DNA of 24,000 nucleotides from Geothrix sp. (GTDB lineage: Bacteria; Acidobacteriota; Holophagae; Holophagales; Holophagaceae): NCBI GenBank assembly GCA_030681515.1, contig JAUXSE010000018.1:7790-31789 (forward strand). The letters run 5' to 3'. The stretch's first letter is position 1, and each line of letters opens with the position of its first letter. Under the pieces are notes generated by a model. It did not search any database. It saw nothing but the letters and a program-made list of their open reading frames with translations, and was not told the DNA's origin. A program made the position numbers and the translations under genes. Shown piece after piece: positions 8,636 to 16,729 of the stretch.

Positions 8636-9582
8636 CCGCTGGATTGTCCCACGAATCGCGCAAGGGCTTCCCAGCGGCGGGCCCGCAGCGCTTCCGCGTC
8701 CAGGAGTCCGCCATCCGGGCCCCGGCGGTGGAGGAGCAGGCCGATGCAGCGCCGGTCCGAGGGCCGGTAGAACAGGGCGGGGCCGGTGTAGCCCAGGTGG
8801 AACCACCAGCCCGAGGGTGGCCCCGGCTCGGCGTCAAGGTCCGGGGCAGGCGGCGGGGCGTGTGCCGCGGGATCCTCCAGCACATGGATGCCGGGGCCGG
8901 GTGGAATCATGGACAACAATTGTCCATATTGCCCCTCGCCCGAAAAGGCGATCTTGAGGCCGAGACCCCAGCGGACGCCCTCCTCGCCTTCGGCCGTTTC
9001 CACGGCCATGCGCTCTGGCCAGCCCGCCGCCACCCACGGGGCCAGGGCGAGGCGCAGCTGGGGAGCGGTGGTGCCGAACCCTGCGTGGCCTGGCATTCCC
9101 GCCCGGGCGTTGGCGTCGTGGGGAAGACGCGGATCCCGGGGCGGAAGAGGCGCCGCCGTGGCCAGGGCCCAGGCCAGGGCATCGGGGCCATCGGGAACCC
9201 CGGTGGGAGCCATCGTCCAGGGTGCGGGGCTGAGGCCGGAGGCCTGGCCGAGCTTCGCGAAGGGGACACCGGTCTCGGCCTCCAGCAGCTCGGCCAACAG
9301 GCGGTAGTTCAGGTCCGAGTAGGTGGCCAGGCCGGGCGTGGCGGGGCGCAGCAGGGGATGCCCGGGCACATCCCGCCTCAATTGCGCGGCCAGAGGCTCG
9401 CCGGTGAAGGGCCGCCAGGGCGGCAGGCCGGAGTCGTGCGACAGCAGCTGGCGCACCGTGAGCGGCGTATCGCGGTCACGGAAGCCCAGGGTCCACCGCC
9501 GGTCCCCGTCCAGGTCCAGGAAGGCCAGCGCCAGCGGCGCCGTCACCAGGGGTTTGGTCAGCGAGGCAAGGTCGTAGAACAT
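8632..9582 (-). CDS. Beta-lactamase-fold serine hydrolase, N-terminally short
   Basis: SxxK (SLTK) occurs at residues 7-10, with a YSD(L)N Tyr motif and a GYTG third motif. No signal peptide is visible. ATG 9582 is the only ATG/GTG/TTG after the in-frame TGA at 9640-9642. Confidence 0.8.
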   Translation of the reverse strand: MFYDLASLTKPLVTAPLALAFLDLDGDRRWTLGFRDRDTPLTVRQLLSHDSGLPPWRPFTGEPLAAQLRRDVPGHPLLRPATPGLATYSDLNYRLLAELLEAETGVPFAKLGQASGLSPAPWTMAPTGVPDGPDALAWALATAAPLPPRDPRLPHDANARAGMPGHAGFGTTAPQLRLALAPWVAAGWPERMAVETAEGEEGVRWGLGLKIAFSGEGQYGQLLSMIPPGPGIHVLEDPAAHAPPPAPDLDAEPGPPSGWWFHLGYTGPALFYRPSDRRCIGLLLHRRGPDGGLLDAEALRARRWEALARFVGQSSG

Positions 9583-10849: not shown

Positions 10850-11356
10850 ATGAATCTCAAGCTCGAAGCCGTGAACCTTCTCCGATGGCTGCATTTCGTG
10901 GCCATTGCCGTGGGCGGCGGCGCCGCCGTGGTCGCGCTCCTCCTTTCGGGATTCGAGGAGGACCGCGAGGATCTCCAGGGTCTGGCCGCGACGGTCTGGG
11001 CCAAGGTGGTGGTGTGGGCCTTCCGCCTGGCGCTCATCGTGGGCCTCGCCCTGCTGGTGATGATGATCCAGGGCGGCCGGAACCCCCTGAAGGACGGCAG
11101 CTACTTCCATCTCAAGCTGCTGCTGGTGTTCATCCTGTTGGGTCTCTCCGAAATGACGCCCAAGGCCCTCGCCGTGGGAAAGCGGGGCTCGGCCCTGCTG
11201 GTGCTGCTGCTCTTCCTGGCCTCCAGCTTCACGGTCTTCAACAAGGGACTCTTCGGTGGCCGTCCGAAGGCGGGTCCGGTGCTCCCGGTGAGCGCGGAGT
11301 CCACCTTGCCCCAGGCGACGCAGGCCTCGCCCGAGGTCCAGCGTCAACCCCGCTGA
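10850..11356 (+). CDS. Integral membrane protein with about 4 TM helices; function unknown
   Basis: 168 aa with four hydrophobic stretches (LLRWLHFVAIAVGGGAAVVALLL, VVVWAFRLALIVGLALLVMMI, YFHLKLLLVFILLGL, SALLVLLLFLASSFTVF). GAGG lies upstream of the ATG. Confidence 0.7.
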   Translation: MNLKLEAVNLLRWLHFVAIAVGGGAAVVALLLSGFEEDREDLQGLAATVWAKVVVWAFRLALIVGLALLVMMIQGGRNPLKDGSYFHLKLLLVFILLGLSEMTPKALAVGKRGSALLVLLLFLASSFTVFNKGLFGGRPKAGPVLPVSAESTLPQATQASPEVQRQPR

Positions 11357-11520
11357 CCCATGCGGATTCTGATACTGGCCCTGGCGGGGACGGGCTTCCT
11401 ACCTGCTGGGCCCGCGGAGCAGCGACAGCCCCGTGTTCTGGGACACCTTCCACAGCGCCCTCATCCGCGGCGTGGGTCACGGTGATACGGCTCTGAGCAT
11501 CACGCCCATTCCCGCGCCAA

Positions 11521-11560
11521 AGGCGCAGGAATAACTCGGGGCGCCGAATGGCGCCCGCTG
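11521..11560. repeat. Left copy of the imperfect ~40-bp direct repeat bracketing the low-GC islet
   Basis: Left AGGCGCAGGAATAACT----CGGGGCGCCGAATGGCGCCC-G aligns with right AGGCACAGGAATAACTAACTCGGGGCGCCGAA-GGCGCCCCG. It contains an imperfect hairpin (about 11537-11557). Confidence 0.8.
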
Positions 11561-11831
11561 AAGACTCAGGGCTGAGGCCGAAGCAGGAGCGAGGATCCAC
11601 TGTGTGAGAAGCGCATGGCCTAGAGGGCGCAACCCAGGAGGGGTTAAGCGGGGACTCCTCTTCTGATTTCCTGAAATTGCCGTTGTACCGAGAGATCCTT
11701 TCCGCGCGCCCGGGAAGGGGCGCATCATCGTGTGCAGGTGTGCAGTCAGAAATGTGTAGAACACAGAGCCTAGGTCACTGGCTGCTGGTAGCGTAGAGGC
11801 CAAACAAGAGGCTGGTATTTGGGAGGCCCCC

Positions 11832-14015
11832 TTGGGCAATAACCATGAATCTGTCTTTTCTTCGGACCAACCGGTTTCGAACAAGCTTGAAGATCAACTG
11901 AACCGTGCAGCGTTCTCGGAACGTGTGTCGGAGATCCTCGCTTCAGTTCCCTTGAGAGACAATTTGGTGGTGGGAATTCACGGCCCTTGGGGAGACGGGA
12001 AAACCAGCGTATTGAACCTGATCAGGGCTGAGCTGGGTGGTTACCACGACATTATTGTGAGGGACTTCAATCCGTGGCGATTGACAGATGAAGAGCAAAT
12101 GCTGCGGGGATTTATCACGATGCTTGCCTCTTCGATTGGTGAATCTCTAGCGACCCCTGGGGAGAGGGCCCAATCGATGTTTAGGAAATGGGCAGGCAAG
12201 GGGCGATTGGTCACCAAACCACTCAGCTGGGTTTGGAAGCCAGCCGAAACTGCTGACGAGTTATTAGCCGCATTGGGCAAGGTCGCCAAGTCAGGGGACA
12301 GCCTTGCACTTGATGACCTTCGGGGGCGCCTTGTTGAATGCCTCGGCGGATCTCTCAAGAGGGTTGTTGTTCTAATTGACGATGTCGATCGTCTCGACAA
12401 GCACGAAACGTATACCCTTTTCAAACTCATCAAGGCCTGTGCGGACTTTCCAAACGTTTGTTATCTGTTGGCTTTCGATGATGTGGCCGTTGCGAAGACG
12501 CTAGGGGACCGTTACGGAGAAGGCGGTGAACTAGCGGGTAGATCGTTTCTAGAAAAAATCATTCAGGTTCCCCTCAAGCTCCCAGCGCCAATGAAAGAGG
12601 ATCTTCGTCGGCTGTGTTTCCAGAATGTAGAGCTAGCGCTTGCCCGAGCAGGAATCGAGCTCACGGAGAATCAAGCTAGAGAATTCGTATCCAACTTCGA
12701 TCGAGGAGTATTAATACAGCTTGAAACCCCTAGAGCAGCAAAACGTTACGGCAACGCCCTGATGTTTGCTCTCCCACTGCTGAAAGGGGAAGTCGATGTC
12801 GTAGATCTGCTCCTTCTTGAGGCGCTGAGATCCTTTTATCCGACCATCTATGATCGGATTCGATCCGAGCAAACTGCGTTCTCTGGCCTTGATCAGGAAC
12901 GTGGCGGTCGGCCTGATGATACCCCGCGCGCAGTCCAGTTGCTCGCAGCAGAGCTTGATGGGTTGGACCCGAGATCCCAAGAATCTGTCAAGGCTCTCCT
13001 CGCGGGACTTTTCCCGCGTCTAAGGCCTTCGTACACGCGAGGAGGTCACTACGGGACAAGTTGGCTTCAATCCTGGGCCGAACGAAAGCGAGTGTGTTCC
13101 CCAGACTATTGCCCTCGCTACTTCACCTATTCAATTCCTCATGGGGATATCCGAGATTCAGAGATTGATGTCTTGATCGAAGCCGCCGTCAGATCTCAAC
13201 AAGAGATGGTATTCGACCTACTCAAAGGTCACTTCGAAAGTGATCGTTCTCGCAGGTTGATCGGGAAGCTACGTGCGATCGAAACGACTATCAATTCTCA
13301 AGCGGCTCCAATCCTGTGCATCGCGATTGCAGGGCTAGCAAAGCATATCCCGAACCCTCCTGCCTTTTTCAGGCATGCGGAGCCCCCCTCTCAGGCCGCC
13401 ATTTTGCTCTCTCACCTTGTTCGCCGGCTTTCTTCGTCGGATGACCGGAGCGCTCTAGCGCAACGGATTATCCAGGCCGCTGATCCGCTGTGGTTTGGAG
13501 CCGAGTGCCTACGTTGGTTCTATGTCACTGACGATGCTGACAAAGCAGAACACAACGCCCTCACAATGGAACAGCTAGTAGAAGTGCGATCGACCCTAGT
13601 CGAACGGGTCAGGGCCAGCTCGATTGAAGGTCAAGCAATGTTCAATCCTGAGGTACCACAGGAGGTAGATCTACTTATTGAGTGGCGCCGATTGGATGGG
13701 CGAGAACCTGTGCAAGCACACCTAACGAGAGTCTTCGACAATGACTCCAGGCAGATTTTCAGGTTTTTGGAAGCAATGTCTGGACAGCCTTGGGGAGTGG
13801 AGAATGGCTTGCCGTTGCCGCGAGAGATCGGTGGGGATCACTTAAAAAGCATTGAATTCCTAATCGGCCTCAACTTGACCGCAGAGTTGATTCAGAAGTA
13901 CTCCTTAAGCGAATTTGAGAATCCGCAACGACGCCCAGATCCCTCGAAGGGGGCAAACGAACGTCTGGCAGAGCAGTTTATGTATGCATACAAGAAACGT
14001 GGGGAGGAGAAGTAA
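11832..14015 (+). CDS. KAP-family P-loop NTPase (soluble, PifA-like architecture)
   Basis: TTG start with GGGAGG 5 nt upstream. An in-frame TAG at 11757 and the absence of any ATG before the P-loop force a non-ATG start. Walker A is GPWGDGKT (11982-12005) and Walker B is VVVLIDDVD (12363-12389). Also present: FNPW, YLLAFD and SFLEKIIQVPLKLP. 727 aa, with no TM insertions. Confidence 0.9.
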   Translation: MGNNHESVFSSDQPVSNKLEDQLNRAAFSERVSEILASVPLRDNLVVGIHGPWGDGKTSVLNLIRAELGGYHDIIVRDFNPWRLTDEEQMLRGFITMLASSIGESLATPGERAQSMFRKWAGKGRLVTKPLSWVWKPAETADELLAALGKVAKSGDSLALDDLRGRLVECLGGSLKRVVVLIDDVDRLDKHETYTLFKLIKACADFPNVCYLLAFDDVAVAKTLGDRYGEGGELAGRSFLEKIIQVPLKLPAPMKEDLRRLCFQNVELALARAGIELTENQAREFVSNFDRGVLIQLETPRAAKRYGNALMFALPLLKGEVDVVDLLLLEALRSFYPTIYDRIRSEQTAFSGLDQERGGRPDDTPRAVQLLAAELDGLDPRSQESVKALLAGLFPRLRPSYTRGGHYGTSWLQSWAERKRVCSPDYCPRYFTYSIPHGDIRDSEIDVLIEAAVRSQQEMVFDLLKGHFESDRSRRLIGKLRAIETTINSQAAPILCIAIAGLAKHIPNPPAFFRHAEPPSQAAILLSHLVRRLSSSDDRSALAQRIIQAADPLWFGAECLRWFYVTDDADKAEHNALTMEQLVEVRSTLVERVRASSIEGQAMFNPEVPQEVDLLIEWRRLDGREPVQAHLTRVFDNDSRQIFRFLEAMSGQPWGVENGLPLPREIGGDHLKSIEFLIGLNLTAELIQKYSLSEFENPQRRPDPSKGANERLAEQFMYAYKKRGEEK

Positions 14016-14037
14016 GAGGCCAAGGTCCCCTCTCTGG

Positions 14038-14082
14038 AGGCACAGGAATAACTAACTCGGGGCGCCGAAGGCGCCCCGAGCT
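14038..14082. repeat. Right copy of the imperfect direct repeat bracketing the islet
   Basis: See the left copy. This copy carries an extra AACT and a perfect hairpin. Confidence 0.8.
14056..14080. terminator. Hairpin between the convergent KAP and yebC genes, a likely bidirectional terminator
   Basis: ctcggggcgcc-gaa-ggcgccccgag is a perfect 11-bp stem with a 3-nt loop. It lies 41 nt after the KAP stop and 26 nt after the yebC stop. No clear U-tract. Confidence 0.55.
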
Positions 14083-14105: not shown

Positions 14106-14837
14106 TCAGTCCTCGGGCTCCTCGTATTCGCCGTTGTGCCACACGTTCTGCACATCGTCGTTGTCCTCCAGCAGGTCCACGAGCTTGAGGAAGCTGGCGA
14201 GCTTGGCGCCCTCCAGGGCGGTGCTGGTGCTGGGGGCCATGATCAGCTTGGCCTCGATGACGGGCAGCTTGGCGGCGTCCACGGCATCCTTCACGGCCTG
14301 GTAGGACTCGGGGCTGGTCTTGATGACCCAGGCCTCGCCCTCGTTGACCACGTCGTCGGCGCCGGCCTCCAGGGCCACCTCCATGAGCCTGTCCTCGGAG
14401 ACTTCCGGCTCGACCACGATCTGCCCCTGGTTGCTGAACAGGTAGGCCACCGAGCCCTGGGCGCCCAGTTCCCCGCCGAATTTGGTGAAGCAGCTCCGGA
14501 TTTCGGGCGTGGTGCGATTCTTGTTATCGGTCATGGCCTCGACCATGATGGCCACGCCGCCGGGGCCATAGGCCTCGTAGATGACTTCCTCGTAGGTCAC
14601 GCCTTCGAGTTCGCCGGTGCCCTTCTTGATGGCGCGCTCCCAGTTGTCCTTGGGCATGTTGCTGCCCTTGGCCTGGTCCACGGCCAGGCGCAGGCGGGGA
14701 TTGGCATTCACGTCGCCGCCACCGAGTCGCGCGGCCACGGTGATCTCCTTGAGGATCTTCGTGAAGACTTTCCCCCGCTTGGCGTCGGCGGCGCCCTTCT
14801 TGTGCTTGATGGTGGACCATTTGCTGTGGCCGGACAT
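14106..14837 (-). CDS. yebC: YebC/PmpR family DNA-binding transcriptional regulator / translation factor
   Basis: [32 protein letters not shown]...[21 protein letters not shown] is the unmistakable YebC signature. I place the start at ATG 14837 with AAGGAG upstream; the track start at 14858 adds 7 residues. Confidence 0.95.
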
Positions 14838-14920
14838 GGGGTGCGCTCCTTCAATCAATCGTTCGTTCTGCTCAGCAACCGCTCCGCGTTTGCTGAGTAG
14901 GGGAAGAGAGTCTTTTCAAT

Positions 14921-15766: not shown

Positions 15767-16495
15767 CTAGCCGATCACGCCGCTGCGGGAGGGTGTGGGC
15801 CGGCGGCGGCGCACGGCGCGCTTGGTGGGGGCGGACGCAGTCTCCTTCCGGGGGCGGCCCGGGCCGCGCTTGGGAGCGGGCTCCTTCGGCTTAGCGGCCT
15901 TCCGGACTTTGACCTTCTTGTCCTTCTTCACGTGTTCCCGCCGGACCAGCGCCGCGGCGGCCCTGCCGGTGACCACCACGCGGGTGCCATCCTTCAGCTT
16001 CTTGACCTTGCTGCCCGGCTTCCGGCCTCGCTTGAGGCTCATGGCCAGCGGTTCCACATCAAGCAGTTCCCGTTCGAGCTGGGCCTGGAGAGCCATCATC
16101 TCCCCCCGGTCCATTTCGTGGTCGTGGCCGCAGAGATGCAGAAACCCGTGGATGACCAGCGTCTCGACCTCGCGCCTGCGGCTCACGCCGAATTTCTTGG
16201 CCATTTTCTCGGCGGTGGGCAGGCTGATGACGATATCGCCGAGATGGGGGAATGCGCCCTTTTCCACGCTGGACGGGAAGCTAAGCACATCCGTGGTCAT
16301 GTTTTTTCCGCGATGTTCACGATTGAGTTTCCTCATGCCGCGATCATCTACATAAGTCATGGAGATTCCCTGTGCCTCGGGAGCAAGCCGATCTCGCAGC
16401 GCGTGAAACAGTTTTCCAAGGGACTGTTCGCCAGGCCCGCGCATTTTGCTGCGGCTCGACCAGTCAATCATGAAGGACGGTCGTGTCAGAGTCAT
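15767..16495 (-). CDS. ybeY: rRNA maturation endoribonuclease YbeY with a long basic C-terminal extension
   Basis: TDVLSFP and the zinc motif HGFLHLCGHDHE (residues 116-127). AGGAGAAGG lies upstream of ATG 16495. 242 aa, whereas the family is normally about 150-160 aa. Confidence 0.9.
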   Translation of the reverse strand: MTLTRPSFMIDWSSRSKMRGPGEQSLGKLFHALRDRLAPEAQGISMTYVDDRGMRKLNREHRGKNMTTDVLSFPSSVEKGAFPHLGDIVISLPTAEKMAKKFGVSRRREVETLVIHGFLHLCGHDHEMDRGEMMALQAQLERELLDVEPLAMSLKRGRKPGSKVKKLKDGTRVVVTGRAAAALVRREHVKKDKKVKVRKAAKPKEPAPKRGPGRPRKETASAPTKRAVRRRRPTPSRSGVIG

Positions 16496-16606
16496 GGCCT
16501 TCTCCTAGACAGGATCCAACAAAGGGGAATCATTATTAGCTGGTCTGATGAATTCGTCAATGTGGGGTTTCTAGGTGAAGGAATTACATTGATGTCATCG
16601 CTCTGA

Positions 16607-16635
16607 AGTATAGAAGTTGATATTTTAAATTTCAA
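16607..16635 (-). promoter_or_regulatory. Near-consensus sigma70-type promoter facing ybeY
   Basis: On the minus strand: TTGAAA (16635-16630), a 17-nt spacer, then TATACT (16612-16607). This lies inside a ~230-bp AT-rich block and predicts a ~100-nt leader. Confidence 0.35.
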
Positions 16636-16729
16636 TTCAAAATCATCCAAAACAGTGAATACAAAGAAGAAGGACCTCATATTCAGGAAAATAAAACTCG
16701 GGTGAAGGTTCCCCTGGCATCCTGGATGG

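Follow-up and report, generated by a model that had tools for sequence, protein, structure and literature searches.

Between two native genes of a Geothrix chromosome, one encoding a membrane protein and the other yebC, lies a short low-GC segment that carries a single long ORF for a protein with a KAP-family P-loop NTPase domain. The question raised by this locus is what such a solitary gene does among its neighbours, to which family it belongs and how it came to be there. In a preliminary sequence-only reading, the segment was regarded as an acquired phage-exclusion gene, the soluble product of which could be an undescribed variant of the KAP family. The locus was analysed here within a stretch of 24,000 nt, hereafter the window. 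The KAP assignment, the foreign origin, the lack of a partner gene and the defence context of that reading were upheld, whereas its views of the C-terminal region as unknown, of the protein as an undescribed variant and of the defence protein Tmn as a KAP member were not.

Composition and Extent of the Islet

The GC content of the islet (positions 11558-14037, 2.48 kb) was 0.532, while the mean for the rest of the window was 0.681; the comparison set consisted of 166 windows of 2480 nt located elsewhere (standard deviation 0.033, minimum 0.609). In 500-nt windows spanning positions 11501-14000, GC values ranged from 0.51 to 0.58, and those of the flanks were mostly 0.62-0.75. The GC content at third codon positions (GC3) was 0.53 in the islet ORF versus 0.78-0.91 in five neighbouring genes. 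The foreign composition claimed from the initial inspection was thus borne out, and its spot counts of GC (0.45 at position 12421, 0.483 at 13141 and 0.80 at 9001) were exact. The bounds it had given, 11521-14080, correspond to the segment from one flanking direct-repeat copy through to the other. The features of the locus are listed in Table 1.

Table 1. Features of the islet and its flanks (positions in the window; a dot denotes no strand).
Feature	Position	Strand	Remarks
168-aa hydrophobic (membrane) protein gene	10850..11356	+	Native, left anchor; GC3 0.88
M14 zinc-carboxypeptidase remnant	11360..11534	+	Frameshifted pseudogene, native, secreted; stop TAA 11532-11534
Left direct-repeat copy	11521..11557	.	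Last peptidase codons and degenerate terminator hairpin 11538-11556
Foreign leader	11558..11831	+	274 nt 5' of the PifA-family gene; GC 0.588; GGGAGG at 11821-11826
PifA-family gene	11832..14015	+	727 aa; TTG start; stop TAA 14013-14015
KAP P-loop NTPase domain (residues 25-311)	11904..12764	+	Walker A 11982-12005; Walker B 12363-12389; PF07693
Predicted all-alpha PifA-type C-terminal domain (residues 331-727)	12822..14012	+	Conserved motif KRVCSPDYCPRYFTY at 419-433; PADLOC, hhalign
Right direct-repeat copy	14038..14082	.	Intact intrinsic yebC terminator; hairpin 14054-14082, read on the - strand, then T-rich tail
yebC (TACO1/YebC family)	14106..14858	-	Native, right anchor; PF01709 E 2e-56, PF20772 E 8e-35; GC3 0.91

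The foreign leader gave no blastn match in the relatives L002-L004 and no Rfam or tRNA matches, and a consensus sigma-70 site was not found on its plus strand. It is overlapped by a minus-strand ORF (11477-11884), which was taken as non-coding because its GC1, GC2 and GC3 values are flat.

The Islet Gene Encodes an Intact KAP-Family NTPase

The low-GC segment contains a single intact ORF of 727 codons, as had been noted at first sight. Its TTG start codon is indeed forced, since an in-frame TAG is located at 11757-11759 and no in-frame ATG, GTG or TTG occurs between it and position 11832. This start is further supported by the Shine-Dalgarno sequence GGGAGG in the leader and by the N-termini of homologues, which align at the same position. 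The encoded protein is 100% identical to a Geothrix sp. protein from a metagenome-assembled genome (MAG) annotated as "P-loop NTPase fold protein".

Assignment to the KAP family was confirmed by the Pfam KAP_NTPase profile PF07693 (E 1e-42, 146.8 bits versus a cut-off of 20), with protein residues 25-311 aligned to profile positions 1-287 of 293. The catalytic motifs are intact: Walker A (GPWGDGKT) occupies residues 51-58 and includes K57, Walker B (VVVLIDDVD) occupies residues 178-186 and includes D183/D184, and a third motif, SFLEKIIQVPLKLP, is located at residues 238-251. The first two agree with the general patterns GxxGxGK[TS] and hhhhDDxD, respectively. All 80 columns that are invariant in 60 homologues are retained, including G51, G54, G56, K57, D183 and D184. 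Between Walker A and Walker B, there is a W/K/R-rich insert (residues 109-157) of low confidence in the AlphaFold2 model (pLDDT < 50).

Transmembrane (TM) helices in or beside the NTPase domain are typical of many KAP members. The Geothrix protein has none, in agreement with the sequence-only reading: the top 19-residue Kyte-Doolittle mean was 1.54, in a stretch with charged residues. A KAP protein of this kind is still compatible with the PifA subgroup, since PifA of the F plasmid, a KAP protein of ~741 aa, has been reported without TM helices (PMC13001434).

Relation to PifA of the F Plasmid

As for the C-terminal sequence of about 400 aa, it had at first been considered to match nothing recognisable. 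According to the comparison with PADLOC models, the protein matches the PifA profile PDLC02361 with an E-value of 7.2e-79 and a score of 264 bits, residues 8-652 being aligned to profile positions 4-668 of 720 (92%); this result is a match to the profile, and the system-level rules of PADLOC are not part of it. F PifA itself scored 963 bits with the same profile. The C-terminal residues 331-727 taken alone were aligned to profile positions 335-668 (E 1.7e-15). In hhalign, the clade containing the Geothrix protein (A1) and the F PifA clade (A4) were aligned over 618 columns with a probability of 99.93% (E 1.5e-35), and the collinear span covered residues 6-646 of the Geothrix protein and 8-681 of PifA. 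Family membership is established by these profile comparisons, which show homology and collinearity of the C-terminal region with its counterpart in F PifA.

In BLASTP, identity with F PifA was 25% over residues 12-362 (E 6e-25); similarity of the C-terminal regions was not found by pairwise BLAST and is visible with profiles only. The reciprocal narrow profile for the C-terminal domain gave a weak match (13.2 bits, E 0.0017), which ranked above all 999 shuffles. A BLAST bridge through a homologue from a Xanthomonas plasmid, which shares 34% identity with the Geothrix protein, was rejected: this homologue matches F PifA in the NTPase domain only. No housekeeping domain was matched by the C-terminal region, and in this respect the proposal of a defence gene stands.

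The two proteins belong to one length class (727 aa in Geothrix and 741 aa in F PifA) and share an N-terminal KAP NTPase followed by a collinear all-alpha C-terminal domain, with no TM helices in either. They also have a common motif, which reads KRICSPDYCPRYFTY in the consensus of the Geothrix clade and RRLGSxAYWRYYFAF in F PifA, and occurrence as a single gene on mobile DNA is a further likeness found in many family members. On the other hand, identity between them is only about 21-25%, and the Geothrix protein belongs to a separate clade of environmental phyla (Acidobacteriota, Phycisphaerales, Cyanobium, Sulfurifustis). The Geothrix gene is chromosomal and surrounded by housekeeping genes. 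In F, the pifC repressor gene is located directly upstream of pifA in an operon, whereas the Geothrix locus has no pifC counterpart: there is no pifC-type gene directly upstream, the 274-nt leader holds no credible ORF, and no PifC-like partner was detected in the window. The Pif model of DefenseFinder also includes PifC.

Judging from its sequence, the Geothrix gene encodes a full-length PifA-family member composed of a KAP NTPase and a PifA-type C-terminal domain, which is predicted to be all-alpha. It is a further example of an already known type of defence gene and not a new type. The suggestion that a soluble KAP protein with a long C-terminus represents an undescribed variant has to be abandoned, because F PifA has the same architecture and is itself without TM helices.

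Predicted Structure and Comparison with Other Defence Proteins

The full-length AlphaFold2 model had a mean pLDDT of 82.8, and the model of the C-terminal domain (pLDDT 87) consisted of helices throughout. The best solved-structure matches of the full-length model were RdrA (Foldseek E 1.3e-5) and, next, ORC/Cdc6 and STAND proteins. For the C-terminal domain, nothing in the PDB matched the fold significantly; the matches were to generic helical repeats, the best with E 0.11, and no effector fold was recognisable. Solved relatives were also sought by sequence, and none was found with either a single-sequence or a profile query.

Like RdrA of the RADAR system, the Geothrix protein is a large, presumably defensive ATPase whose C-terminal part is helical, and the resemblance of the model to the heptameric two-layered RdrA suggests that the protein may assemble into a ring. 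However, the TM-score was about 0.3, no match was found at the sequence level, no RdrA model was among the PADLOC matches, and the window contains no RdrB adenosine deaminase gene. The QatABCD system likewise includes a KAP-type NTPase, QatA, the N-terminal P-loop region of which matches that of the Geothrix protein. Membership in QatA was rejected (58.1 bits versus an NCBIfam cut-off of 600, with only about 65 residues aligned); no qatB, qatC or qatD genes are present near the islet gene, the neighbours of which are the peptidase remnant and yebC.

Tmn, too, is a membrane-linked P-loop NTPase that provides defence as a single gene. It differs from the Geothrix protein in having two TM helices inside its P-loop domain, and no Tmn model was among the PADLOC matches. 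Tmn had been named in the preliminary reading as a KAP-family protein, but a 2026 preprint assigns it to a distinct YobI family and reports that it acts by turning over ATP, exporting Mg2+ and causing plasmolysis, with no depolarisation (PMC13001434). In a 2026 study in PLoS Biol, EF_KAP and three metagenomic proteins are described that consist of a KAP NTPase and an uncharacterised C-terminal region, and defence by them requires Walker B and the C-terminal region (PMC13552941). The Geothrix protein resembles them as a single protein in which a KAP NTPase is joined to a long C-terminal region of no known fold; EF_KAP differs in possessing two TM helices and in its behaviour, which is not abortive infection (PMC13552941).

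Anatomy of the Insertion

Eight Holophagaceae relatives were compared by synteny, the gene order being YbeY, TPR, YebC, membrane protein and GFO oxidoreductase. The islet gene is missing from all eight and hence does not belong to the core gene set here. The 168-aa membrane protein, which has no Pfam match, shows 62-81% amino acid identity in these relatives and always adjoins the GFO/IDH/MocA oxidoreductase gene; YebC is 90-94% identical in Geothrix relatives. In the relatives L002, L003 and L004, an intact gene encodes a peptidase of 549 aa (Peptidase_M14, 38.2 bits versus a cut-off of 21.6). In the window, what is left of this gene is about 11 codons of its N-terminus followed by about 46 of its C-terminus (...TPIPAPKAQE), ~1.43 kb of the interior having been deleted. 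When compared with the intact gene by blastn, positions 11349-11392 corresponded to its 5' end, 11393-11472 to its near-3' part and 11502-11556 to its extreme 3' end with the terminator.

The islet is bounded by a 37-41-nt duplication that comprises the 3' end of the M14 peptidase gene and the yebC terminator; in shuffled sequences, such a flanking pattern is expected 0.00 times by chance. Relative L004 has a single repeat copy at the empty site, while the window has two, located exactly at the composition boundaries. The horizontal acquisition proposed earlier is borne out by this single-copy empty site together with the absence of the gene from the syntenic relatives. In the left copy, the 3' arm of the hairpin ends prematurely at the islet junction 11557/11558. 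The right copy runs on continuously into the native yebC 3' flank (blastn), and its terminator has a 13-bp stem with 10 GC pairs according to the terminator scan.

Several other explanations of the site were rejected. The flanking hairpin is not a dispersed REP-like repeat, as no further copies of it occur in the window, and no tRNA, tmRNA or known RNA family is available in the window as an integration target. The 3' side of yebC is not a general cargo hotspot either: in more distant Holophagaceae, it is occupied by different native genes of host-like composition. The islet gene is surrounded by housekeeping genes in the window and is not part of a defence island. No recombinase or transposase was found among the 20 flanking ORFs scanned against Pfam, and the locus is, as first described, devoid of a partner gene, integrase and toxin. 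Three features of genomic islands were thus found (deviant composition, absence from relatives and target-duplicating direct repeats), while an integrase of its own or a tRNA was not.

The islet would have entered at the convergent terminator between the M14 peptidase gene and yebC, duplicating 37-41 nt, and the neighbouring peptidase gene would have decayed after its entry. The duplication looks like the attL/attR sites of site-specific integration, in which case the recombinase would be absent, or would have been lost, from the islet; alternatively, it could have arisen in a single illegitimate event.

In Streptococcus, att-flanked elements that lack an integrase (cis-mobilisable elements, CIMEs) have been described. 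Like them, the islet consists of recombinase-free cargo between direct repeats, which are duplicates of a host gene's 3' end; it differs in that no cognate integrative element or recombinase was found for it and no such repeats were present at six homologue loci. We regard as rather improbable a more elaborate model, in which the islet is a one-gene defence cassette that has no recombinase of its own, lies between att-like duplicates of a terminator hairpin and is mobilised in trans, either by a recombinase from another locus or by a hairpin-targeting mechanism, and in which the W/K/R-rich insert 109-157 serves, in a large environmental PifA clade, as a peripheral membrane anchor. If true, this insert would represent a soluble-to-membrane switch that is not described for F PifA.

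Homologues and Their Genome Contexts

More than 1000 full-length homologues were found across many phyla. About 1300 cluster representatives contain the C-terminal domain, and essentially every one of them has it joined to a KAP NTPase. The nearest homologue found anywhere has only 57% identity. The search of a plasmid collection gave 135 records, none reaching 60% identity; F-type plasmids of E. coli were not among the matches listed.

The homologues are stand-alone genes, often located in integrative or conjugative elements or next to restriction-modification genes, and no conserved partner or upstream gene was found across the six homologue loci. One homologue (P0051) is situated among PDC-S01 and type II and IIG restriction genes, and another (P0084) adjoins a type IIG restriction-modification gene (1139 bits) and a HicB-domain gene. 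A third (P0013) lies within a conjugative element (TrwC, TrwB, ArdC, ParDE), and two more (P0002 and P0033) adjoin integrases. The KfrA_N protein encoded upstream of P0033 was considered as a PifC counterpart and turned out to be unrelated to PifC. Flanking direct repeats are not a family-wide feature, none being present at the six homologue loci.

Proposed Function and Alternative Explanations

PifA is among the oldest known abortive-infection proteins and aborts infection by phage T7. We consider it likely that the islet is a horizontally acquired single gene of the PifA family, which acts as an abortive-infection NTPase and was inserted at the peptidase/yebC terminator. As a member of this family, the gene is probably a single-gene abortive-infection module, and the defence role that had been deduced from family context finds support.

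F PifA is triggered by the T7 proteins gp1.2 and gp10 (capsid protein), and its action involves membrane depolarisation and nucleotide leakage (PMC8594841, PMC13001434). The defence function, trigger, oligomerisation and membrane effect of the Geothrix protein are proposed here on the basis of its homology with F PifA and of analogies with STAND-like and RdrA-like defence ATPases. The protein would remain inactive, either in the cytoplasm or on the cytoplasmic side of the membrane, until its helical C-terminal domain detects at least one phage protein. This would switch the NTPase, and the protein would probably oligomerise; as a result, the membrane would no longer be intact, nucleotide pools would be lost, and the infected cell would die before phage release.

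Less probable, although it deserves some consideration, is that the PifA-family NTPase serves the biology of the mobile element itself (element competition, maintenance or membrane-associated signalling) and that the Geothrix gene is a stranded passenger with no anti-phage role. Within a large phage collection, F PifA acted against T7 and a single relative only, and doubts as to whether immunity is its primary or evolved role have been expressed by the BASEL authors (PMC8594841); moreover, three of the six homologues are located in an integrative or conjugative element and not in a defence island. However, two of the six homologues directly adjoin restriction-modification or PDC-S01 genes, four further KAP NTPases, in which the C-terminal region is unknown, conferred phage protection in experiments (PMC13552941), and the Geothrix gene is intact, with all family-invariant residues, though mobile-element functions are gone from its surroundings.

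It seems unlikely that the islet is a decayed stump of a larger integrated element, with an inert gene that is becoming a pseudogene and has no working mechanism. Such decay would agree with the lack of a recombinase, the decayed state of the adjacent peptidase gene, the divergence of the repeat copies (one substitution in a 16-nt block and length differences of 4 nt and 1 nt), the TTG start and the failure to find a consensus promoter in the 274-nt leader. Nevertheless, the 727-codon frame is unbroken, it is preceded by a good Shine-Dalgarno sequence, and every family-invariant position is kept; long residence is also argued against by the composition of the islet, which is still far from that of the host.

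A chimeric join in the MAG is very improbable: the segment comes from a MAG contig and is unique (one cluster member, one contig), but native sequence is present on both sides in the order common to the eight relatives, the segment lies between two copies of a host sequence that have diverged from each other, and these repeats, being short (26 and 16 nt ungapped) and imperfect, would presumably be a poor substrate for a false join.

Significance

Understanding of the PifA family is unchanged by this locus. It offers a clean worked case of one-gene acquisition with an identifiable empty site, and it shows that a PifA-family gene can be transferred on its own. The occurrence of the C-terminal domain in about 1300 cluster representatives indicates that the full PifA architecture extends far beyond enterobacterial plasmids. 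Since the family gives confident models (pLDDT 83-87), its diverse and well-aligned environmental clade could help to work out how PifA senses phages and kills the infected cell.

Composition and Coding Content of the Islet

The low-GC islet lies between a membrane-protein gene and yebC. Outside it the window has a GC content of 0.677, and 500-nt windows mostly range from 0.62 to 0.75, with a drop to 0.51–0.58 in five successive windows from approximately 11500 to 14000. When its boundaries were taken from the flanking repeats, the islet (11558–14037) showed a GC content of 0.532 versus a mean of 0.681 (sd 0.033, minimum 0.609) across 166 equally long windows taken elsewhere. Most of the shift falls on third codon positions, with a GC3 of 0.53 in the PifA-like ORF versus 0.78–0.91 in yebC, ybeY and the genes of the membrane protein, the oxidoreductase and the TPR protein. 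In addition, short AT-rich stretches (GC 0.43–0.54 in 300-nt windows) were found at 2170–2300 and 16500–16700; these are intergenic, promoter-like, located between native genes and unrelated to the islet.

The TTG start of the ORF is supported by an in-frame TAG codon upstream (11757–11759), the absence of any alternative start codon between this TAG and 11832, a GGGAGG motif at 11821–11826, and the N-termini of 59 homologues, which line up with this position. An earlier sequence-only reading had placed Walker A, Walker B and SFLEKIIQVPLKLP correctly, and its KAP-family call agrees with Pfam (KAP_NTPase, E 1e-42). Its statement that TM helices are lacking was borne out by hydropathy analysis, in which no segment of the protein was sufficiently hydrophobic. 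The three GC spot counts of that reading were reproduced exactly, and its description of the low-GC segment, single ORF, TTG start, motifs and absence of TM helices was confirmed in full. All family-invariant residues are retained in the gene.

Features of the islet and its borders in the window
Feature	Coordinates	Strand	Description
PifA-like ORF	11832..14015	+	727 aa; sole long ORF of the islet
M14 zinc-carboxypeptidase stump	11360-11534		frameshifted; ~11 first codons joined to ~46 last, ~1.43 kb deleted
Left repeat copy	11521-11557		last codons of the stump and hairpin
Right repeat copy	14038-14082		intact yebC terminator: 13-bp stem, then T-rich tail on the minus strand

Assignment to the PifA Family

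The C-terminal ~400 aa, previously considered unrecognisable, were placed in PifA by profile methods. The PADLOC PifA profile aligned residues 8–652 with profile positions 4–668 of 720 (E 7.2e-79), and residues 331–727 alone with positions 335–668 (E 1.7e-15). Comparison of the alignments of the window protein's clade (60 sequences) and the F PifA clade (27 sequences) in hhalign gave a probability of 99.93% (E 1.5e-35, 618 aligned columns), with window residues 6–646 on PifA residues 8–681 and matching motifs in the C-terminal half. BLASTP against F PifA detected the NTPase domain only (residues 12–362, 25% identity, E 6e-25). The reciprocal narrow test, in which the C-terminal profile of the window clade was compared with F PifA, was weak (13.2 bits, E 0.0017); the match was collinear and ranked above all 999 shuffles. 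According to these sequence comparisons, the C-terminal residues are assigned to the C-terminal domain of PifA.

This domain matched 1326 cluster representatives at E <= 1e-3 and 521 at E <= 1e-10, and is located at about 320–720 in every full-length protein of 700–790 aa. Full-length homologues number more than 1000, belong to many phyla and show 48–57% identity. Since PifA has been described as a KAP protein that lacks TM helices (PMC13001434), a soluble KAP domain with a long C-terminal region, earlier proposed as an undescribed variant, is the PifA architecture itself. Profile coverage, C-terminal homology, size and the lack of TM helices all agree with the PifA family, and the KAP-family features are present too; the only PifA feature missing is the operon arrangement, F-plasmid pifA being positioned downstream of pifC. 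The window protein differs from F PifA in an identity of only 21–25% and in the absence of a PifC repressor here. A PADLOC-type tool would very probably label it PifA. The protein cluster containing F PifA (P0270, 2596 member sequences) bears the NCBI name “exclusion suppressor FxsA”. FxsA proper, a small membrane protein acting as a suppressor of F exclusion, is a different protein, and the name looks like a misannotation.

As for other defence NTPases, similarity to the QatA and PDC-S20 models is confined to the P-loop region, and membership in QatA, Tmn and RADAR was rejected. The sequence-only reading had counted Tmn in the KAP family; this is contradicted by a 2026 preprint, which assigns it to the YobI family (PMC13001434).

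Predicted Structure

The AlphaFold2 model built from the 60-sequence alignment had a mean pLDDT of 82.8 over the whole protein, with residues 1–11 and 109–157 as exceptions; the C-terminal domain modelled alone was wholly helical (mean pLDDT 87.2). No solved structure matched the family by sequence. The best solved-structure match of the whole model was RdrA of RADAR (E 1.3e-5), followed by ORC/Cdc6 and STAND proteins such as NOD2, Dark and NRC2, all of them ATPases that act as switches or form rings. The C-terminal domain alone gave no significant match among solved structures, its hits (best E 0.11) being TPR-like and other types of helical repeat, and no effector fold (nuclease, protease, pore or other) was seen. 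The sole long low-confidence stretch, residues 109–157 (window 12156–12302), falls in the interval from Walker A to Walker B and has many Trp, Lys and Arg residues (MFRKWAGKGRLVTKPLSWVWKP); speculatively, it may mediate peripheral membrane binding.

The Locus in Related Genomes and a Proposed Route of Insertion

The window derives from a Geothrix sp. MAG, and loci of eight Holophagaceae relatives (L002–L009) were fetched through YebC. All keep the order YbeY, TPR, YebC, 168-aa membrane protein and GFO/IDH/MocA oxidoreductase, and the PifA-like gene is absent from all eight. The YbeY ORF of the window (15767–16495, minus strand) encodes 242 aa, with the Pfam YbeY domain only at residues 38–140; the extensions seem real because nearly the entire length is conserved in the closest relatives (79–90% identity).

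In G. paludis, G. oryzisoli and one MAG, a native high-GC gene of a secreted M14 peptidase (549 aa) is located between the membrane-protein gene and yebC; it is missing from the five other syntenic relatives. The peptidase ends in ...PIPAPKAQE (...PIPAPKTQE in L004, one of these three loci), and the hairpin terminator 3' of its gene is common to the convergent yebC. Both repeat copies flanking the islet correspond to the same 31–36 nt of single-copy sequence in these three loci (L002–L004) and are placed exactly at the composition changes, so L004, with its single repeat copy, represents the empty site predicted by the sequence-only reading.

Three hallmarks of genomic islands are seen in the islet (deviant composition, no counterpart in the relatives, a duplicated target); a recombinase of its own is lacking. 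The simplest reading is that it would have been inserted site-specifically, in an att-like manner, into the terminator region, its recombinase being lost or supplied in trans, and that the neighbouring peptidase gene would have decayed independently. No integrase, transposase or tRNA gene was found in the window, the remaining genes of which are housekeeping; there are no further copies of the repeat in the window, and no such repeats flank the homologues at six loci in other genomes. A one-off illegitimate recombination is a possible alternative to site-specific insertion.

Directly past the yebC stop codon in L002 (7745–8110, two tandem copies), L003 (7750–7900), L007 and L009, a GC-rich, hairpin-rich element of ~150–170 bp was observed, each copy of which repeats the final ~35 nt of yebC. 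Rfam gave no match for it, it is absent from the window, and its exact core occurs only at the yebC 3' site among the fetched loci. A small mobile or MITE-like element with the yebC 3' end as its target is a possible interpretation.

Homologue Neighbourhoods and Putative Function

No partner gene is common to the six homologue loci examined. Two of them adjoin restriction or candidate defence genes; of these two, one has PDC-S01 with type II and IIG enzymes close by, and the other a type IIG enzyme (1139 bits) and a HicB-domain gene. Integrases adjoin two loci, one locus lies within a conjugative element with TrwC, TrwB, ArdC and ParDE, and one is close to an antitoxin-like HTH gene and an RHS toxin gene. 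Another conflict-system neighbourhood was noted on the Xanthomonas citri plasmid pXAS220 (L089, 5935–8145), where the neighbours of a homologue with 34% identity across 98% of the query include a HEPN/Toprim-associated protein as well as a toxin-immunity pair, Tox-REase-5/Imm52.

F PifA makes T7 infection abortive: sensitivity depends on gp1.2 and the capsid protein gp10 of this phage, and the membrane is depolarised and nucleotides leak out (PMC8594841, PMC13001434); in view of its narrow target range, its primary role has been questioned (PMC8594841). Four other KAP NTPases with uncharacterised C-terminal regions protect Enterococcus from phages, and protection by EF_KAP requires Walker B and the C-terminal region (PMC13552941). 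Because of these precedents, the homologue contexts and the retained invariant residues, the window protein is, by homology and context, probably a single-protein sensor and switch. In this model a phage protein would be bound by its helical C-terminal domain; a change of state of the NTPase would follow, probably together with oligomerisation, and membrane integrity would be lost. Points of caution are the low identity to F PifA (21–25%), the missing PifC repressor and the narrow target range of F PifA.

Two points are out of the ordinary: the cassette holds a single bare gene, with a terminator duplication that is att-like and without a recombinase, and the environmental PifA clade is of a size that could help to solve the long-open mechanism of PifA.
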